A DNA stretch of 24,000 bases. Source: Verrucomicrobiota bacterium (GTDB lineage: Bacteria > Verrucomicrobiota > Verrucomicrobiia > Limisphaerales > UBA11358). The notes below the pieces were generated by a model. The model made no database searches and was not told where the DNA came from. It worked only from the letters and a program-made list of their open reading frames with translations. Each line of letters opens with the position of its first letter. The stretch's first letter is position 1. Shown here piece after piece: positions 8,945-12,459 of the stretch. The stretch covers positions 490-24,489 of the forward strand of contig JBEKSU010000015.1 of NCBI GenBank assembly GCA_049516755.1, written 5' to 3'. Made by a program: the position numbers and the translations under genes.

Positions 8945-8994
8945 GGCCGCGCTGCTGCGCGGCCATCATACCCCGGCGGCGCAGCCGCGCCGCC
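8945..8994. repeat. Twin GC-rich hairpins between convergent genes (REP-like element or atypical bidirectional terminator)
   Basis: GGCCGCGC-tgct-GCGCGGCC (8945..8964) and GGCGGCGC-agcc-GCGCCGCC (8975..8994). Both have perfect 8-bp stems and tetraloops, and neither has a U-tract on either strand. Confidence 0.5.
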
Positions 8995-8999
8995 CTGCC

Positions 9000-9737
9000 T
9001 TACGTTGCCAAGGCGGCATTCACGCCGGCGACAAGTGCGTTGATGCGGGTGGTCAACGGAAAATCCGACGGCGCTTCGAGGGTGTAGGATAATCGGGTTT
9101 TGTTGACGATCAAATAAAACGCCTCGGCCCATAACGGTCGCGTCTGTGGATCAAGGTTCGGACGAATAATGCCGCCCTGGGCCGGGCGGTCTTCGATGAT
9201 TTCCGACGGGTCAATCGGGCAGACTTCCGCGATGTGCGCAACCATGGTTTCGGCCAGCGATGGACGGTTTTCTGGATTCAATTCGTAAACGTAAAAGCCG
9301 TGCGATTCCCAGTCCTCGTGCAGGCAGAGGCAGAGGTCGAACTGCGGCTGGCGTTCCAGCCAGGCGATGTGTGCGCGCGTTTCCGCCGTTTCCCGGTGCC
9401 GATATTGCCGGTTGAGGTCAACTCCCCGGTCGTTCTCACGGCGGTTCAAAACGAAGCCCATCGGATTCAGGCACGGGCAAAACCACAGTTCCGCGTCTTT
9501 GGGCCATTGGTTCTCCCGGAGCAGGCGCAACGCCGCGAGCGGCCCGGCGGGTTCGTCGCCGTGAATGCCGGTGCTCAAATAAATGCGGATTGTGGATTGC
9601 GGATTACGGATTGAAAGCGGGGGACGGTGCAGGGCGAGCAGGTTGAATTCGCCTTGTTGCCCAAACGTCTCGGAGGTCCAGCCGGGTTGTTGGGCGGCGG
9701 TTGCGATGTCACGCAGCACGGCGCGGATGTCAATCAT
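9000..9737 (-). CDS. M14-family zinc carboxypeptidase-like protein (succinylglutamate desuccinylase/aspartoacylase superfamily)
   Basis: YLSTGIHGDEPAGPLAALRLL contains the HxxE zinc motif, and ...CLCLHEDWES... follows later. The ORF extends to 9884, but that part covers an intergenic repeat. ATG 9737 (MIDIRAVLRDIA) is the likelier start. Confidence 0.7.
   Translation of the reverse strand: MIDIRAVLRDIATAAQQPGWTSETFGQQGEFNLLALHRPPLSIRNPQSTIRIYLSTGIHGDEPAGPLAALRLLRENQWPKDAELWFCPCLNPMGFVLNRRENDRGVDLNRQYRHRETAETRAHIAWLERQPQFDLCLCLHEDWESHGFYVYELNPENRPSLAETMVAHIAEVCPIDPSEIIEDRPAQGGIIRPNLDPQTRPLWAEAFYLIVNKTRLSYTLEAPSDFPLTTRINALVAGVNAALAT
9585..9612 (-). repeat. Heptanucleotide repeat, 4 units (AATCCGT/AATCCGC/AATCCAC/AATCCGC on the coding strand), inside the M14 gene
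   Basis: The plus strand reads GCGGATT GTGGATT GCGGATT ACGGATT. It is translated as SIRNPQSTIRI directly upstream of the HGDE zinc motif. Confidence 0.85.
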
Positions 9738-9791
9738 CTCGCCGTGGTAGCCGCCGTGATTTTTGCCGAGCTTTTCCACGCGGAGAATTTC

Positions 9792-9815
9792 ACGCAAAGA
9801 CGCAAAAACGCAAAG
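9792..9815. repeat. Tandem octamer (ACGCAAAR)x3 in the ada-M14 intergenic spacer
   Basis: ACGCAAAG ACGCAAAA ACGCAAAG on the plus strand. The minus strand reads CTTTGCGT TTTTGCGT CTTTGCGT, 55-78 nt upstream of ATG 9737. Confidence 0.8.
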
Positions 9816-9828
9816 AAGTTTTATCCGT

Positions 9829-10704
9829 TTATCGATTTGCCGCCTCCGGAACGCCACCAAGTCGCGACGAGCTTTCCCACGCAATCATCGCGCGTTTACG
9901 GATTTGTCCCCAGTGATAATCTCCAATTACACCGGTTTCGCGAATGACGCGATGGCACGGGATAAGGTAAGCCAGCTGGTTTTGGCCGACGGCCGTTCCC
10001 ACGGCGCGTGACGCGGCCGGTTTGCCAATCGCGATTGCCAGTCGTCCGTAACTGGTAAGCGTGCCGGGCCGGACTTGCAGCAACGCCCGCCAGACGCGCA
10101 CCTGAAACGGCGTGCCGCGAACGAACGCGCGCAACGGAGCGCCAGGCTCCGACCCGGCGTGTTGGTTTATGGCGTGGCGTGCAAAAATATTTGCAGCGAG
10201 TTGCCTGACAACAGAATGGTCGCACCTGAATTTTGCCTGCGGCCAATCTTCTTGCAGCGCCGCCAGAGCGGCTTTTTCATTTTCAGTTTCGGTGAATGAG
10301 AGATGGCAGATGCCGCGAGGACTTTCGGCAATCAAACATTTTCCAAACGGGCTGTCCGCGAAACCGAATGAAATGGTCCGGCCGGCGCCGCCGGATTTCA
10401 ATTCGCCGGGCGACGCGGCTTCGAGATTCACGCAAAGGTCATGCAACCGGCCCGGCCCGGAAAGGCCGGACTCCAGCGCGACATCCAGAATGCTGTTGCC
10501 GTCGCGGAGCAATTCCTTCGCGTGCGCGAGCGTGAGGCATTGGAGAAAATCCTTCGGTGTGACACCCGCCCACGTCGAGAACAGGCGATGAAAATGGAAC
10601 TGGCTCAAGCCCGCGCGTCCGGCCAGGGTTGTCAAATCCGGTTGGTCGGTGTGGCGCTCATCCAGAAAACGGATGATTTGAGCGATGCGTTCGTAATCAT
10701 TCAC
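9829..10704 (-). CDS. Bifunctional AraC-type HTH regulator / methylated-DNA-protein-cysteine methyltransferase (Ada/Ogt-like)
   Basis: The N-terminal half has an AraC HTH (LSQFHFHRLFSTWAGVTPKDFL...). The C-terminal half has the Ogt active site LIPCHRVI. The track ORF starts at 10935 but runs through a hairpin repeat and the DUF559 3' end. In-frame GTG 10704 (VNDYERIAQIIRFL) or GTG 10740 are the plausible starts. Confidence 0.8.
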   Translation of the reverse strand: MNDYERIAQIIRFLDERHTDQPDLTTLAGRAGLSQFHFHRLFSTWAGVTPKDFLQCLTLAHAKELLRDGNSILDVALESGLSGPGRLHDLCVNLEAASPGELKSGGAGRTISFGFADSPFGKCLIAESPRGICHLSFTETENEKAALAALQEDWPQAKFRCDHSVVRQLAANIFARHAINQHAGSEPGAPLRAFVRGTPFQVRVWRALLQVRPGTLTSYGRLAIAIGKPAASRAVGTAVGQNQLAYLIPCHRVIRETGVIGDYHWGQIRKRAMIAWESSSRLGGVPEAANR

Positions 10705-10767
10705 GTCCCCAATCTGCCACGGGATGAAGGCCGCTCCCACCCGATTCTTGCGGCAAAATTTTGTTTT

Positions 10768-10792
10768 CCTCTCCCCGCCAAACGGGGAGAGG
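10768..10792. repeat. Hairpin repeat H1: CCTCTCCCC-GCCAAAC-GGGGAGAGG
   Basis: Perfect 9-bp stem and 7-nt loop, abutting the DUF559 stop codon (10794..10796). Confidence 0.9.
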
Positions 10793-10793
10793 G

Positions 10794-11237
10794 TCAGGGC
10801 GAGGGGTTCGTTTTCTTTTCTACGAATTTGATTTTTTTCACTTCCGGAGGGACAAACCGCTGCTCCTCCGCATTTTTCATCACTTGCACGCAGCCCGTCC
10901 GGCGTTGCAACGCATCCCAGATGGCCAGCAAACATCCTTCACGATTCTTCTGCCACTCATGATTCCAAAATCGCAATTCCTCAATATCCTGTTTTTTCAG
11001 AAAAGCGCTACGCGCCGCATCGAGTTGCATCTGCTCCGGCAAGCCGTGTTGAAAACCGTCCAGTTCCACATCCAACCGCGCCGCCGCGCAATAGAAATCC
11101 AAAATATAAATTCCCGCTGGATGCTGTCGGCGAAATTTGAATCCGGCGAAACGGTGGCTTCGCAACGCGCGCCACAATTCCTTTTCGTCGTCGGTCTGGT
11201 CGCGACGAAGCTGGCGGGCGGTTTGGATTGAGTTCAC
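10794..11237 (-). CDS. DUF559 endonuclease-domain protein (Vsr/restriction-endonuclease-like fold)
   Basis: ARQLRRDQTDDEKELWRALRSHRFAGFKFRRQHPAGIYILDFYCAAARLDVELDGFQH...LRFWNHEW matches the DUF559 pattern. GTG start at 11237. The C-terminal ~35 aa form a non-conserved tail. Confidence 0.85.
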   Translation of the reverse strand: MNSIQTARQLRRDQTDDEKELWRALRSHRFAGFKFRRQHPAGIYILDFYCAAARLDVELDGFQHGLPEQMQLDAARSAFLKKQDIEELRFWNHEWQKNREGCLLAIWDALQRRTGCVQVMKNAEEQRFVPPEVKKIKFVEKKTNPSP

Positions 11238-11290
11238 TTCGAAAGGATGCGAGTTGTTGGAAAAATTTCAAGTCCCCGCACGCTGACAAC

Positions 11291-11319
11291 TCCCTCTCCT
11301 CGCCAAACGAGGAGAGGGA
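11291..11319. repeat. Hairpin repeat H2: TCCCTCTCCTC-GCCAAAC-GAGGAGAGGGA
   Basis: Perfect 11-bp stem with a loop identical to H1 and the same orientation. It lies 54 nt upstream of the DUF559 start and 25 nt downstream of the bioB stop. Confidence 0.9.
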
Positions 11320-11343
11320 GAAGATGCTCGCGTTCTGGACGGT

Positions 11344-12459
11344 TTATTTCGCGGTCGCCAGTTCCACTTCCGTTCCGCAATTCCCTTTTCCGCAATCGCA
11401 ACCGCCTTCTTCCTGATCGCTGAAACCATGGCTGTCCCAGCTTGGGTCAAGGCCGAGGTCCTTGAGCATTTGCAGGTCTTTCTCGACGGATTGATTGAGC
11501 GTGGTGAGATAATTGCCGACCATCAGCGCGCTCGCGCCAGCCATGAAAATCAGGCTTTGCGCGTCGCGCAAATTCACCGTGCGGCCGCCGGCGACCATGA
11601 TTTCCTGCCGCGACAAAATGAACCGGAAGCACGCGATGGTCTTTAAAATTTCCAGGACGGGCAGGGGATCGTTTTTTTCGAAGGGCGTGCCGGGAATCGG
11701 GTTGAGAATGTTGACGGGCACGACTTTCGCGCCGATTTGCTTCAGCGAAAACGCGAGGTCGCAGCGATCTTCGCGCGTCTCGCCCATGCCGATGATGCCG
11801 CCGGAACAAATTTTGATGCCGGCCTTTTTCAGATAACCGATGGTTTCGAGGCGGTCATCGTAGGTGTGCGTGGTGCAGGTCTTGGGGAAAAAGCGGCGCG
11901 AGCTTTCGAGGTTGTGACCGTAGCACTCGACGCCGGCTTCCTTGAGCCGGTCGGCCACGCGCTGGCTTTTGATGATGCCGAGCGAGACGTCCGGTCGCGT
12001 TTTGCCGCCGGCTTTCAACTCGCGCACGCGGGCGCAAACCTCATCGAGCATCGGGCCTTCATTGAGGCCTTTCCAGGCGGCGACCAGTCCCACGGCCGTC
12101 ACGCGGTTTCGGTTGGCCTCCTCGGCGGCTTCGGCCACGGGTTCGGGATCAACGAACCCGTATTTGGGCGAGCCGGTCTGGTAAAACGATGATTGCGCGC
12201 AGAAACTGCAATTTTCCGGGCACGCGCCGGCCTTGGCGTTGACGATGGAACAGAGGTGGATTTTGTTGCCCTTGAATTGTTCCCGGATGCGGTTCGCCCA
12301 CGAGAGCAGATCGAAAATGTCGGAGCGGTTTTCGAGATTGAAGAGCCACAACGCCTCGTCACGGGAAATCCGGCCGCCATTTAAAATCCGTTCGCCGAGC
12401 CGGGCGATTTGCGTTCGGGGGTTTGCGTCAACCAGTTTAACAGTCATGGTTGACAGCAT
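11344..12459 (-). CDS. bioB: Biotin synthase (radical SAM)
   Basis: CPENCSFCAQS is the radical-SAM CxxxCxxC motif, and the protein has a BioB-like layout throughout. An unusual Cys-rich C-terminal tail reads EEGGCDCGKGNCGTEVELATAK. ATG 12447 is an alternative, possibly leaderless, start. Confidence 0.93.
   Translation of the reverse strand: MLSTMTVKLVDANPRTQIARLGERILNGGRISRDEALWLFNLENRSDIFDLLSWANRIREQFKGNKIHLCSIVNAKAGACPENCSFCAQSSFYQTGSPKYGFVDPEPVAEAAEEANRNRVTAVGLVAAWKGLNEGPMLDEVCARVRELKAGGKTRPDVSLGIIKSQRVADRLKEAGVECYGHNLESSRRFFPKTCTTHTYDDRLETIGYLKKAGIKICSGGIIGMGETREDRCDLAFSLKQIGAKVVPVNILNPIPGTPFEKNDPLPVLEILKTIACFRFILSRQEIMVAGGRTVNLRDAQSLIFMAGASALMVGNYLTTLNQSVEKDLQMLKDLGLDPSWDSHGFSDQEEGGCDCGKGNCGTEVELATAK

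Follow-up and report, generated by a model that had tools for sequence, protein, structure and literature searches.

BoxC/PIT/TM_ECO triplex repeats bracket a DUF559/YcjD nuclease gene in a verrucomicrobial genome: a candidate co-evolving selfish cassette

Work on the BoxC or PIT (potential intrastrand triplex) repeats of bacteria is reportedly due to Bachellier in the 1990s and to Hoyne and Maher in 2000. The repeat was called BoxC in Escherichia coli, then PIT element and then TM_ECO (Holder et al. 2015, PMC4666352). Its consensus, CCCTCNCCC-N3-6-GGGNGAGGG-N3-GGGNGAGGG, describes a hairpin and a third, G-rich arm in mirror symmetry to the purine arm; there are 23 copies in E. coli K-12, and the repeat occurs in more than 260 genomes (PMC4666352). 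No transposase, integrase or other mobility function was ever found near the repeats, and their origin and spread were left unexplained (PMC4666352). Here we analyze a 24-kb stretch of the Verrucomicrobiota contig JBEKSU010000015.1 (the window; coordinates are window positions, and L-numbers denote comparison loci), in which two such repeats bracket a nuclease gene of the DUF559/YcjD family. Gene and flanking repeats behave as a discrete unit whose position differs between genomes, related and unrelated. On balance we lean, by analogy, towards regarding the nuclease and the BoxC/PIT/TM repeats as a co-evolving selfish cassette in the manner of REPIN-RAYT systems (RAYT, REP-associated tyrosine transposase; REP, repetitive extragenic palindrome).

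The cassette spans about 10764-11343 (0.58 kb) and contains the following features.

10794..11237, minus strand: YcjD-type DUF559 gene (Vsr-fold, PD-(D/E)XK; Pfam PF04480), 147 aa, GTG start
10768-10806, plus strand: downstream repeat, a complete 39-nt three-arm element, CCTCTCCCCG-CCAAA-CGGGGAGAGGG-TCA-GGGCGAGGGG
11290..11320, minus strand: upstream repeat H2, a perfect 13-bp hairpin, CTCCCTCTCCTCG-TTTGG-CGAGGAGAGGGAG on the gene strand
about 11273..11283, minus strand: putative third (mirror) arm of H2, decayed, GCGTGCGGGGA on the gene strand, from the sequence and comparison with L147, L151 and L288
11244..11271, minus strand: promoter-like block, TTGAAA at 11271-11266, a 16-nt spacer and CATCCT at 11249-11244

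On the plus strand, the downstream hairpin H1 (10768-10793) and the upstream hairpin H2 (11293-11318) are identical at 24 of 26 positions, and the only two changes affect the partners of a single base pair (C:G in H1, T:A in H2), with pairing kept. Searched with as many as 3 mismatches, CCTCTCCYCGCCAAACGRGGAGAGG matched H1 and H2 alone in the 24 kb and had no match in 100 shuffles. Fourteen hairpins with a stem of at least 8 bp are present in the window, and only H1 and H2 are built of one pyrimidine and one purine arm. Folding of the gene strand gave -22.7 kcal/mol (z -3.5) for H1 and -30.0 kcal/mol (z -5.0) for H2. An earlier note on this DNA had described hairpins of one family on both sides of a complete DUF559 open reading frame (ORF) between bioB and an ada-like gene, and this description stands, neighbours included. 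As it had also stated, H1 adjoins the stop codon (TGA, 10794-10796). H2 does lie upstream of the start codon, at a distance of 52 nt from the GTG rather than the 54 nt given before, and follows bioB by 23 nt.

The hairpins are not a new family; by their sequence they are members of the long-known BoxC/PIT/TM_ECO intrastrand triplex repeats. In the downstream element, the H1 hairpin (10768-10792) is followed by a TCA linker (10794-10796), which is the complement of the TGA stop codon of the ORF, and by the third arm GGGCGAGGGG at 10797-10806, within the last codons of the ORF. Written as tCCTCTCCC-(cgccaaacg)-GGGAGAGGG-TCA-GGGCGAGGG, this element agrees with the three-block TM_ECO consensus, block 1 having one mismatch; its 9-nt loop is a consequence of additional C:G pairs in the stem. 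H2 agrees with the consensus in part, with one mismatch in each of blocks 1 and 2 and a decayed block 3. Close relatives carry GGGGTGAGG(G/A)G (also given as GGGGTGAGGGG) at the corresponding place, and we read 11273-11283 as what is left of the third arm of H2. Both hairpins had been described as lying in the same orientation; this holds for the loops, which are direct, and not for the complete elements at the two ends, which are inverted by their third arms. An Rfam scan of 10400-11700 (E<=1) returned only a 17-bit match to PAGEV against a cut-off of 61, which was taken as chance.

Repeats of this type are widespread. Scanning one genome per species for CCCTCTCCYC-N3-11-GRGGAGAGGG yielded at least 120 loci, and the groups among the loci listed were Alpha-, Beta- and Gammaproteobacteria, Verrucomicrobiota, Planctomycetota, Acidobacteriota, Rokubacteria, Myxococcota, Chloroflexota and others. 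A mirror third arm was found beside 73% of 454 hairpins, compared with 6% for shuffled flanks, and the third arm followed the hairpin variant (GGGAGAAGG with GGATGAGGG, GGGGGAGGG with GGGTGGGGG; 0/1000). Its frequency and co-variation show selection on the three-arm design, which is predicted to be triplex-capable. About a quarter of the hairpins (L001-L225) carry one mismatch, with a hotspot in the middle of the 9-mer arm (CTC[N]CCC); in the mismatch survey this central N was the only variable position of the arm, as was already known. A conserved mismatch as a Vsr-type substrate was considered and rejected, none being dominant (C/A 25, T/G 22, G/A 16).

The window ORF matched Pfam PF04480 with E=6.3e-34 (116.6 bits, cut-off 20.6, profile positions 3-108 of 109). 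Against NCBIfam PRK09767 it scored 108.7 bits, the equivalog cut-off being 218; the protein is a member of the YcjD family and not an equivalog. Residues D47, E58, D60, Q63, H64 and R89-F90-W91-N92 were invariant across 7 distant members; among 31 close members, D47, E58, D60, H64 and RFWN were invariant and Q63 was kept in at least 90%. Alignment with PDB 3HRL gave E=1e-19. In the AlphaFold (AF2) model (pLDDT 75) the core is confident and a 35-residue C-terminal extension is not; the model matched 3HRL with a template modelling score of 0.84, and Foldseek aligned it with 3R3P (I-Bth0305I) at E=1e-3, probability 1.00 and a target-normalised score of 0.60. By predicted fold, the nearest characterised relative is the homing endonuclease I-Bth0305I. 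The next best fold matches in the PDB, after 3HRL and I-Bth0305I, were Toxoplasma and Tetrahymena mitoribosomal proteins (RAP-like).

Comparison of the window gene with those of three other cassettes gave ratios of nonsynonymous to synonymous substitution (dN/dS) of 0.09-0.14 with dS above 1, and comparison of these coding sequences shows purifying selection on the DUF559 gene. The DUF559/YcjD family comprises 19,769 clusters at 50% identity (E<=1e-3), and an exact-sequence look-up found no identical copy of the window protein on record. Among PADLOC defence models only a weak partial match to DpdF (16.6 bits) was obtained, and the protein is not a known defence protein. Predicted DUF559 proteins often have translated-repeat extensions at both ends, such as LTPTLSPKGEREK and SPLPLGEGG, and 'PSP..GEG/GRG' extensions of this origin are present at the N and C termini of many entries in databases; the statement in the earlier note that LSP..GER/GEG-like peptides recur near DUF559 genes was sound. 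Such 'PSP..GEG' extensions, and spurious ORFs across repeats, are a common annotation artefact.

Upstream of the ORF, the block CTTGAA(T/A)TTTT..AAC.CGCAT.CT has been kept between cassettes that are saturated at synonymous sites. The GTG start lies 6 nt after the CATCCT of this block, which suggests a leaderless transcript. A scan for the sigma-70 consensus found no promoter upstream of the ORF, and from its conservation we infer a promoter-like function for 11244-11271.

Association of the gene with the repeat proved general. In 80 metagenome loci selected by the family protein motif alone, with no hairpin criterion, pyrimidine/purine hairpins were sought with a stem of 7 bp or longer, or of 9 bp or longer when one mismatch was present. 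A repeat was present within 250 nt upstream of 64 of 83 genes and within 250 nt downstream of 54 of 75; 67 of 72 genes had a repeat within this distance on at least one side and 40 of 72 on both. The background more than 500 nt away was 0.145 per kb, or about 0.04 expected per flank (binomial p<1e-56). The co-localisation of hairpins and DUF559 genes, for which the note had proposed a statistical test, is thereby upheld. On viral and proviral contigs, flanking hairpins were found at 28 of 34 genes whose products share 37% identity or more with the window protein and at 0 of 20 more distant DUF559-like genes (Fisher p=7e-10). Chance juxtaposition of similar hairpins around an unrelated ORF, for which only the small size of the element speaks, is refuted by these two results and by the shuffles of the window, and we give it practically no credence.

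The usual geometry is inverted, with third arms toward the gene, and the loops of the two ends are mostly reverse complements. In the nearest upstream hairpin the G arm was gene-proximal in 45 of 66 cases and in the nearest downstream hairpin the C arm in 30 of 61, the opposite arrangements being rare. The direct loops of the window (TTTGG at both ends, gene strand) are common to L288, and in the slightly more distant L147 and L151 the upstream loop is reversed; judged from these sequences, direct loops are a lineage-specific loop flip and not a defining trait.

In the reverse direction, a DUF559 gene lay within 300 nt of 6 of 131 pattern-selected repeats, and with a broader finder DUF559 was detected in 12 of 243 repeat windows compared with 0 of 233 control windows (Fisher p=2.7e-4). 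A relaxed search with hidden Markov models beside solo repeats revealed one hidden DUF559 remnant only (Dyella, L054); the solo repeats are therefore not recently decayed cassettes. DUF559 was the only small family recurring beside the repeats, the other recurrent families being large and common. Few repeats with the gene and many without it is, by analogy, the pattern of REP/RAYT systems or of miniature inverted-repeat transposable elements (MITEs) and their transposases. As to vehicles, plasmids were rejected (the gene is in only 40 of 72,556 records, many of them chromids or mislabelled chromosomes), and so were phages (55 matches in 2.9 million viral contigs).

Gene and repeats also co-vary. 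The two ends of one gene were more similar in their arms than ends of different genes (0.789 vs 0.688; 0/5000 permutations). Solo repeats more than 500 nt off on the same contig matched the flank variant of the gene (0.789 vs 0.673; 0/2000), examples of such variants being CCCTCTCCCGC, CCCCCTCTT, ATCCCCCCTT and CCCTTCCCC. When relationships of DUF559 proteins were compared with their flanking hairpins, as the note had envisaged, protein identity correlated with hairpin similarity (Mantel r=0.20, 6/1000). Between the window and the three other cassettes the hairpin arms are nearly identical though dS exceeds 1, so the arms must be constrained or homogenised and not drifting.

These observations bear on the view that the hairpins are gene punctuation, that is, terminators, insulators or mRNA-stabilising stem-loops for bioB and DUF559. 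Stable GC-rich stem-loops just past stop codons, H2 after bioB and H1 at the DUF559 stop, would suit such a role. A terminator scan of 10600-11500 found none, however; neither hairpin is succeeded by a U-tract, H1 being followed by AAAACAAAA on the gene strand, and PIT/BoxC elements have neither promoter nor terminator activity in E. coli (cited in PMC4666352). Punctuation would also leave unexplained the co-varying mirror arm, the dispersed identical copies and the cross-phylum conservation, and the bioB orthologues of relatives have no such hairpin. We regard it as very improbable.

The neighbours and the spacer on the bioB side are as follows.

11344..12459, minus strand: bioB, upstream neighbour of the DUF559 gene
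downstream of the DUF559 gene, minus strand: Ada-like gene with AraC and MGMT domains, from domain matches
11321..11343, minus strand: spacer of 23 nt that separates H2 from the bioB stop codon, from alignment with L288

Homologues 65-88% identical to the window protein are abundant in metagenomes, in contexts as unrelated as a type I restriction-modification system, ABC transporters, Yip1/MnmE and an ArsR-like gene, and the same repeat type flanks the gene in every such locus. Compared with four of these cassettes, the window showed homology from the upstream hairpin via the promoter-like block and the ORF to the downstream repeat, and the outer flanks were unrelated beyond both repeats. H2 is the outer, bioB-side end of the cassette and is collinear with the upstream hairpins of L001, L008, L010 and L288; 10768-10806 is the outer, ada-side end, and homology with L138 and L289 resumes about 5 nt outside 10768. 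The spacer 11321-11343 shows weak similarity to what precedes the equivalent hairpin in L288 and probably belongs to the cassette.

Thirteen syntenic relatives without the DUF559 gene (BioB 87-93% or Ada 83-87% identical; 76.6 kb in all) contained no pyrimidine/purine hairpin in these 76.6 kb. Their slot after bioB is empty in L139 and L227 and is filled with other cargo in L138, L140-143, L228-231, L287 and L290. With the gene-less relatives free of hairpins, we conclude that the hairpins came together with the gene. The alternative offered earlier, that insertion into a pre-existing hairpin had duplicated it, is contradicted by these relatives, and the empty bioB-[single hairpin]-ada site that it predicts was sought and not seen among them, the hairpin being absent wherever the gene is absent.

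A second site was found in close relatives. In L288 and L289, where Ada is 87% and DUF559 86% identical to those of the window, the same cassette, collinear with that of the window from the H2-equivalent hairpin to the H1 element, lies between ada and a DUF2817-family gene; that of the window lies between bioB and ada. The L288/L289 site is empty in the window, L138, L287 and L290, and no hairpin is present upstream of ada, the place of the window cassette, in L289 or L138. This ada|DUF2817 slot is the one filled/empty pair found; empty sites are without the repeat, and a recurrent target sequence was not identified. In L288 the cassette stands between two direct copies of a 48-nt segment (42/48; 922-969 and 1663-1710) from the 5' part of the DUF2817-family coding sequence; this duplication keeps the Ada C-terminus and the start of the downstream gene. 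Alongside it there is a deletion of about 100 nt between the similar 11-mers GCGTGGGAAAG and GCGTGGAAAAG. The long duplication hints at replication- or repair-based insertion.

Passive capture would account for part of these data: the repeats would be hotspots of recombination and instability, and DUF559 a frequent passenger with no functional tie to them. TM loci in E. coli are indeed unstable and more rearranged than control loci (PMC4666352), the cargo downstream of bioB differs among relatives, and the L288 insertion came with a duplication and a deletion. Yet relatives with other cargo are without repeats, which means that the repeats arrived with DUF559 and not before; DUF559 is the sole small family recurrent beside repeats, none of the 20 distant DUF559-like genes has them, and variant-specific co-variation of ends, solo copies and protein is not expected of a passenger. 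We consider passive capture decidedly unlikely.

Local changes of the cassette were seen elsewhere. L186 (433-1190) has two tandem DUF559 genes with the same repeat before each, and L151 and L156 carry frameshifted DUF559 copies; these sequences suggest occasional local duplication and decay.

The gene and its repeats were also examined in E. coli and Neisseria gonorrhoeae.

L144 (E. coli K-12, NC_000913.3 1351000-1351830) and L225 (O157:H7): ycjD, its BoxC repeats and the fabI-sapF slot
L286, 255-300 and 880-925: gonococcal repeats, variant CCTCTCTCCC-TGT-GGGAGAGAG-CTA-GAGAGAGGG

YcjD of E. coli K-12 (b1289) is 50% identical to the window protein, and 3HRL, the only structure solved, is that of N. 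gonorrhoeae NGO0050. YcjD ends in ...RRSPSP*, with the stop codon within a degenerate BoxC hairpin. A perfect TM_ECO element lies 168 nt downstream of ycjD, and between the two there is a duplicate, about 60 nt long, of the 3' end of ycjD itself. This element is #9 in Table 1 of Holder et al. (PMC4666352), who did not remark that it adjoins ycjD. In the inverted TM pairs of K-12, third arms point inward in 4 of 5, with a spacer of 16-27 nt; by sequence these pairs share the geometry of DUF559 flanks and look like gene-less versions of the cassette. The gonococcal DUF559 gene, of the 3HRL family, has direct repeats of about 110 nt at both sides, each with a TM variant; their direct orientation is unlike that at most loci.

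In 5,426 complete E. coli genomes, ycjD was found in 3378, always between fabI and sapF, and no second ycjD-like locus was detected in any of them. The ycjD-less genomes were considered as clean empty alleles and rejected as such: the 6-kb efflux operon eefRABCD fills their fabI-sapF slot (PMC12817139). In Azospirillum, the gene and an upstream TM of the CCCTCCCC type lie at one locus across species, and an empty site sought in Azospirillum replicons was not obtained, the gene being present in all relatives.

Such constancy would suit a domesticated caretaker, a host structure-specific nuclease that processes repeat hairpins or triplexes, for example at stalled forks, and is vertical and immobile today; its position between repeats would be a relic or serve autoregulation. 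A single, syntenic copy is found in E. coli (3378/5426, fabI-sapF) and Azospirillum, the gene is under strong purifying selection, the L288 cassette diverges about as much as host genes do (86-87%), and TM repeats cause local instability and block polymerase in vitro (PMC4666352). A caretaker would leave unexplained the 93% bracketing, the start or stop codons at or within the repeat, the different slots in related genomes and the unrelated contexts in others, and ycjD-less E. coli lineages retain the repeats. We think this explanation unlikely, while granting it some weight.

We return to the reading of nuclease and repeats as a selfish cassette. The cassette would have come into the slot downstream of bioB as one unit and would be one of a very large, cross-phylum population, in which a few repeats flank a single nuclease gene and many copies of that variant, solo or paired, are spread over the genome with no gene beside them. 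The nuclease may recognise its cognate repeat (as duplex, extruded hairpin or triplex) and nick or cut there. Copying from another repeat-flanked locus during repair or restart could then move the gene between repeat sites, and the same copying could multiply or homogenise the repeats. In many lineages the pair would now be vertically inherited in single copy, as with RAYTs. Extending this, we put forward tentatively, as a possibility short of our preferred reading, that BoxC/PIT/TM repeats are the cis-acting ends and non-autonomous progeny of an unrecognised class of selfish element whose sole enzyme is YcjD/DUF559.

Several points weigh against a selfish cassette. Binding or cutting of the repeat by the protein is a prediction; the RAP-like mitoribosomal proteins of the same fold bind nucleic acid without cutting it, and we know of no PD-(D/E)XK nuclease that mobilises DNA alone, except homing endonucleases. 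For about 95% of the repeats, neither a DUF559 gene nor a remnant of one lies close by. By a rough count, ycjD-less E. coli genomes contain about as many megablast-detectable repeats as those that carry ycjD, so repeats persist in the absence of the gene. No ongoing hopping was seen in E. coli, where ycjD is single-copy at one locus, or in Azospirillum. A short target-site duplication was not found (mean longest shared word in 12-nt outer flanks 3.25 vs 2.94 permuted, 25/2000), which argues against DDE-type transposition, and the duplication and deletion at L288 could have arisen by rearrangement at an unstable repeat and not by transposition. The co-variation statistics could stem in part from common ancestry and base composition. 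Single strands of TM_ECO form a triplex in vitro, and none was detectable in vivo (PMC4666352).

In the open literature, to which the search was confined (subscription-only papers lay outside its scope), no published link of DUF559 or ycjD to the BoxC/triplex repeat was found. Both components are known; their linkage is new as far as we found, and would be categorically new if the nuclease mobilises the repeats. No role is known for DUF559/YcjD, a very large family with a solved structure (3HRL) and a member in E. coli K-12; its nuclease may be the missing protein partner of the repeat. The association would tie together two long-standing unknowns, the role of DUF559/YcjD and the origin and spread of BoxC/PIT/TM. 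If the nuclease acts on the repeat, this would explain why a non-coding element of 35-40 nt is conserved from E. coli to Verrucomicrobia, and it would provide a nuclease specific for both sequence and DNA structure and a new class of enzyme among repeat-propagating systems. On the wider, tentative reading of the repeats as ends and progeny of a selfish element, that element would be a second, mechanistically unrelated counterpart of REPIN-RAYT, combining a PD-(D/E)XK enzyme with three-arm, triplex-capable DNA.

The DUF559 ORF and its neighbours, bioB and the Ada-like gene, are all on the minus strand. By the source names of the closest BioB and Ada homologues, the organism belongs to the Verrucomicrobiia/Limisphaerales. 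The Ada-like gene, found in only part of the relatives, has its true start at the GTG at 10704, by homology with L138; the 368-aa 'Ada' ORF 9829..10935, which runs through H1 into the DUF559 gene, has a spurious N-terminal extension. ORF lists overstate both minus-strand genes at 9000-9884 and 9829-10704. The slot directly downstream of bioB (window 11321-11343) is a cargo hotspot in the lineage of the window: relatives have a 150-aa, a 316-aa or a 303-aa ORF, none of the three with a Pfam match, or an SDR gene, or no cargo. A second, unrelated intergenic repeat, CTTTGCGT(C/T)TTTGCG...CTTTGCGTGAAATTCTCC, stands in front of several genes in Verrucomicrobiia contigs and may be a shared promoter/operator or another dispersed repeat. 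Between convergent genes of the window, the adjacent GC-rich 8-bp hairpins GGCCGCGC-TGCT-GCGCGGCC (8945-8964) and GGCGGCGC-AGCC-GCGCCGCC (8975-8994) may be a bidirectional terminator.

L138 4689-5690, L140 4695-5927, L287 2075-3000 and L290 2053-3000: slot downstream of bioB in relatives
window about 9785-9830 (minus strand), L138 5590-5620, L139 4650-4680, L140 5905-5945, and L001 downstream of the cassette: second intergenic repeat

Compared with known systems, the window protein shares a fold superfamily with the Vsr repair endonuclease, and the Pfam families differ (PF03852 vs PF04480); no cytosine methyltransferase adjoins DUF559 in the window or the loci examined, and the JGI label 'very-short-patch-repair endonuclease' on homologues is a transfer by fold and not evidence for T:G repair. 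YcjD and NGO0050 belong to the same family as the window protein and are likewise flanked by BoxC/TM-type repeats, on the downstream side only in E. coli and in direct orientation in Neisseria; the 35-residue C-terminal extension of the window protein, modelled with low confidence, is typical of a Verrucomicrobiia subfamily. With BoxC/PIT/TM_ECO the repeats share the order of pyrimidine arm, loop, purine arm, short linker and G-rich mirror arm, the intergenic location, the distribution over many phyla and the frequent inverted pairs. They differ from the E. coli consensus in longer stems and loops and in one decayed third arm, and, whereas the literature describes orphan repeats, here they bracket a nuclease gene and the link is general.

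Free-standing homing endonucleases of the Vsr-like (EDxHD) type (I-Bth0305I, PDB 3R3P; Dassa et al. 2009, PMC2677866) have the catalytic fold in common with DUF559 and are also small selfish nuclease genes, with hairpins noted upstream of the ORF (PMC2677866). However, they reside in phage introns, inteins and fractured genes and have one conserved coding target, and no such single target is evident for DUF559; their hairpins are AT-rich RNA of the 5' untranslated region that sequesters the ribosome-binding site, whereas those of DUF559 are dispersed genomic repeats on both sides. MITEs and transposons with terminal inverted repeats, and IS200/IS605 elements, resemble the cassette in structured inverted ends, short gene-less derivatives and compactness. 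The cassette differs in having no DDE, HUH, serine or tyrosine recombinase and no short target-site duplication of fixed length, and in a single DUF559 copy per genome where this could be judged. It has no TnpA (Y1) or TnpB ORF, and only terminal hairpins are common with IS200/IS605.

A further parallel is with REP/REPIN-RAYT systems (Nunvar 2010; Bertels and Rainey 2011, PMC3116915; PMC5581495). A RAYT is an HUH/Y1 tyrosine transposase from the IS200/IS605 superfamily and works on single-stranded hairpins, whereas DUF559 is a PD-(D/E)XK protein of Vsr fold, and no Y1_Tnp match was found in the window DUF559 protein; REPs are palindromes with a GTAG head, and BoxC/TM repeats have three arms with mirror symmetry. 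The RAYT-like layout proposed in the earlier note therefore holds for the unit, the association, the co-variation and the gene-less majority, and not for the enzyme; it is an analogy and not membership. In both systems a single-copy, mostly vertical gene of nuclease type is flanked by inverted repeats, gene-less singlets and inverted doublets are dispersed in the genome, and the repeat type co-varies with the gene, which shows a similar way of working.

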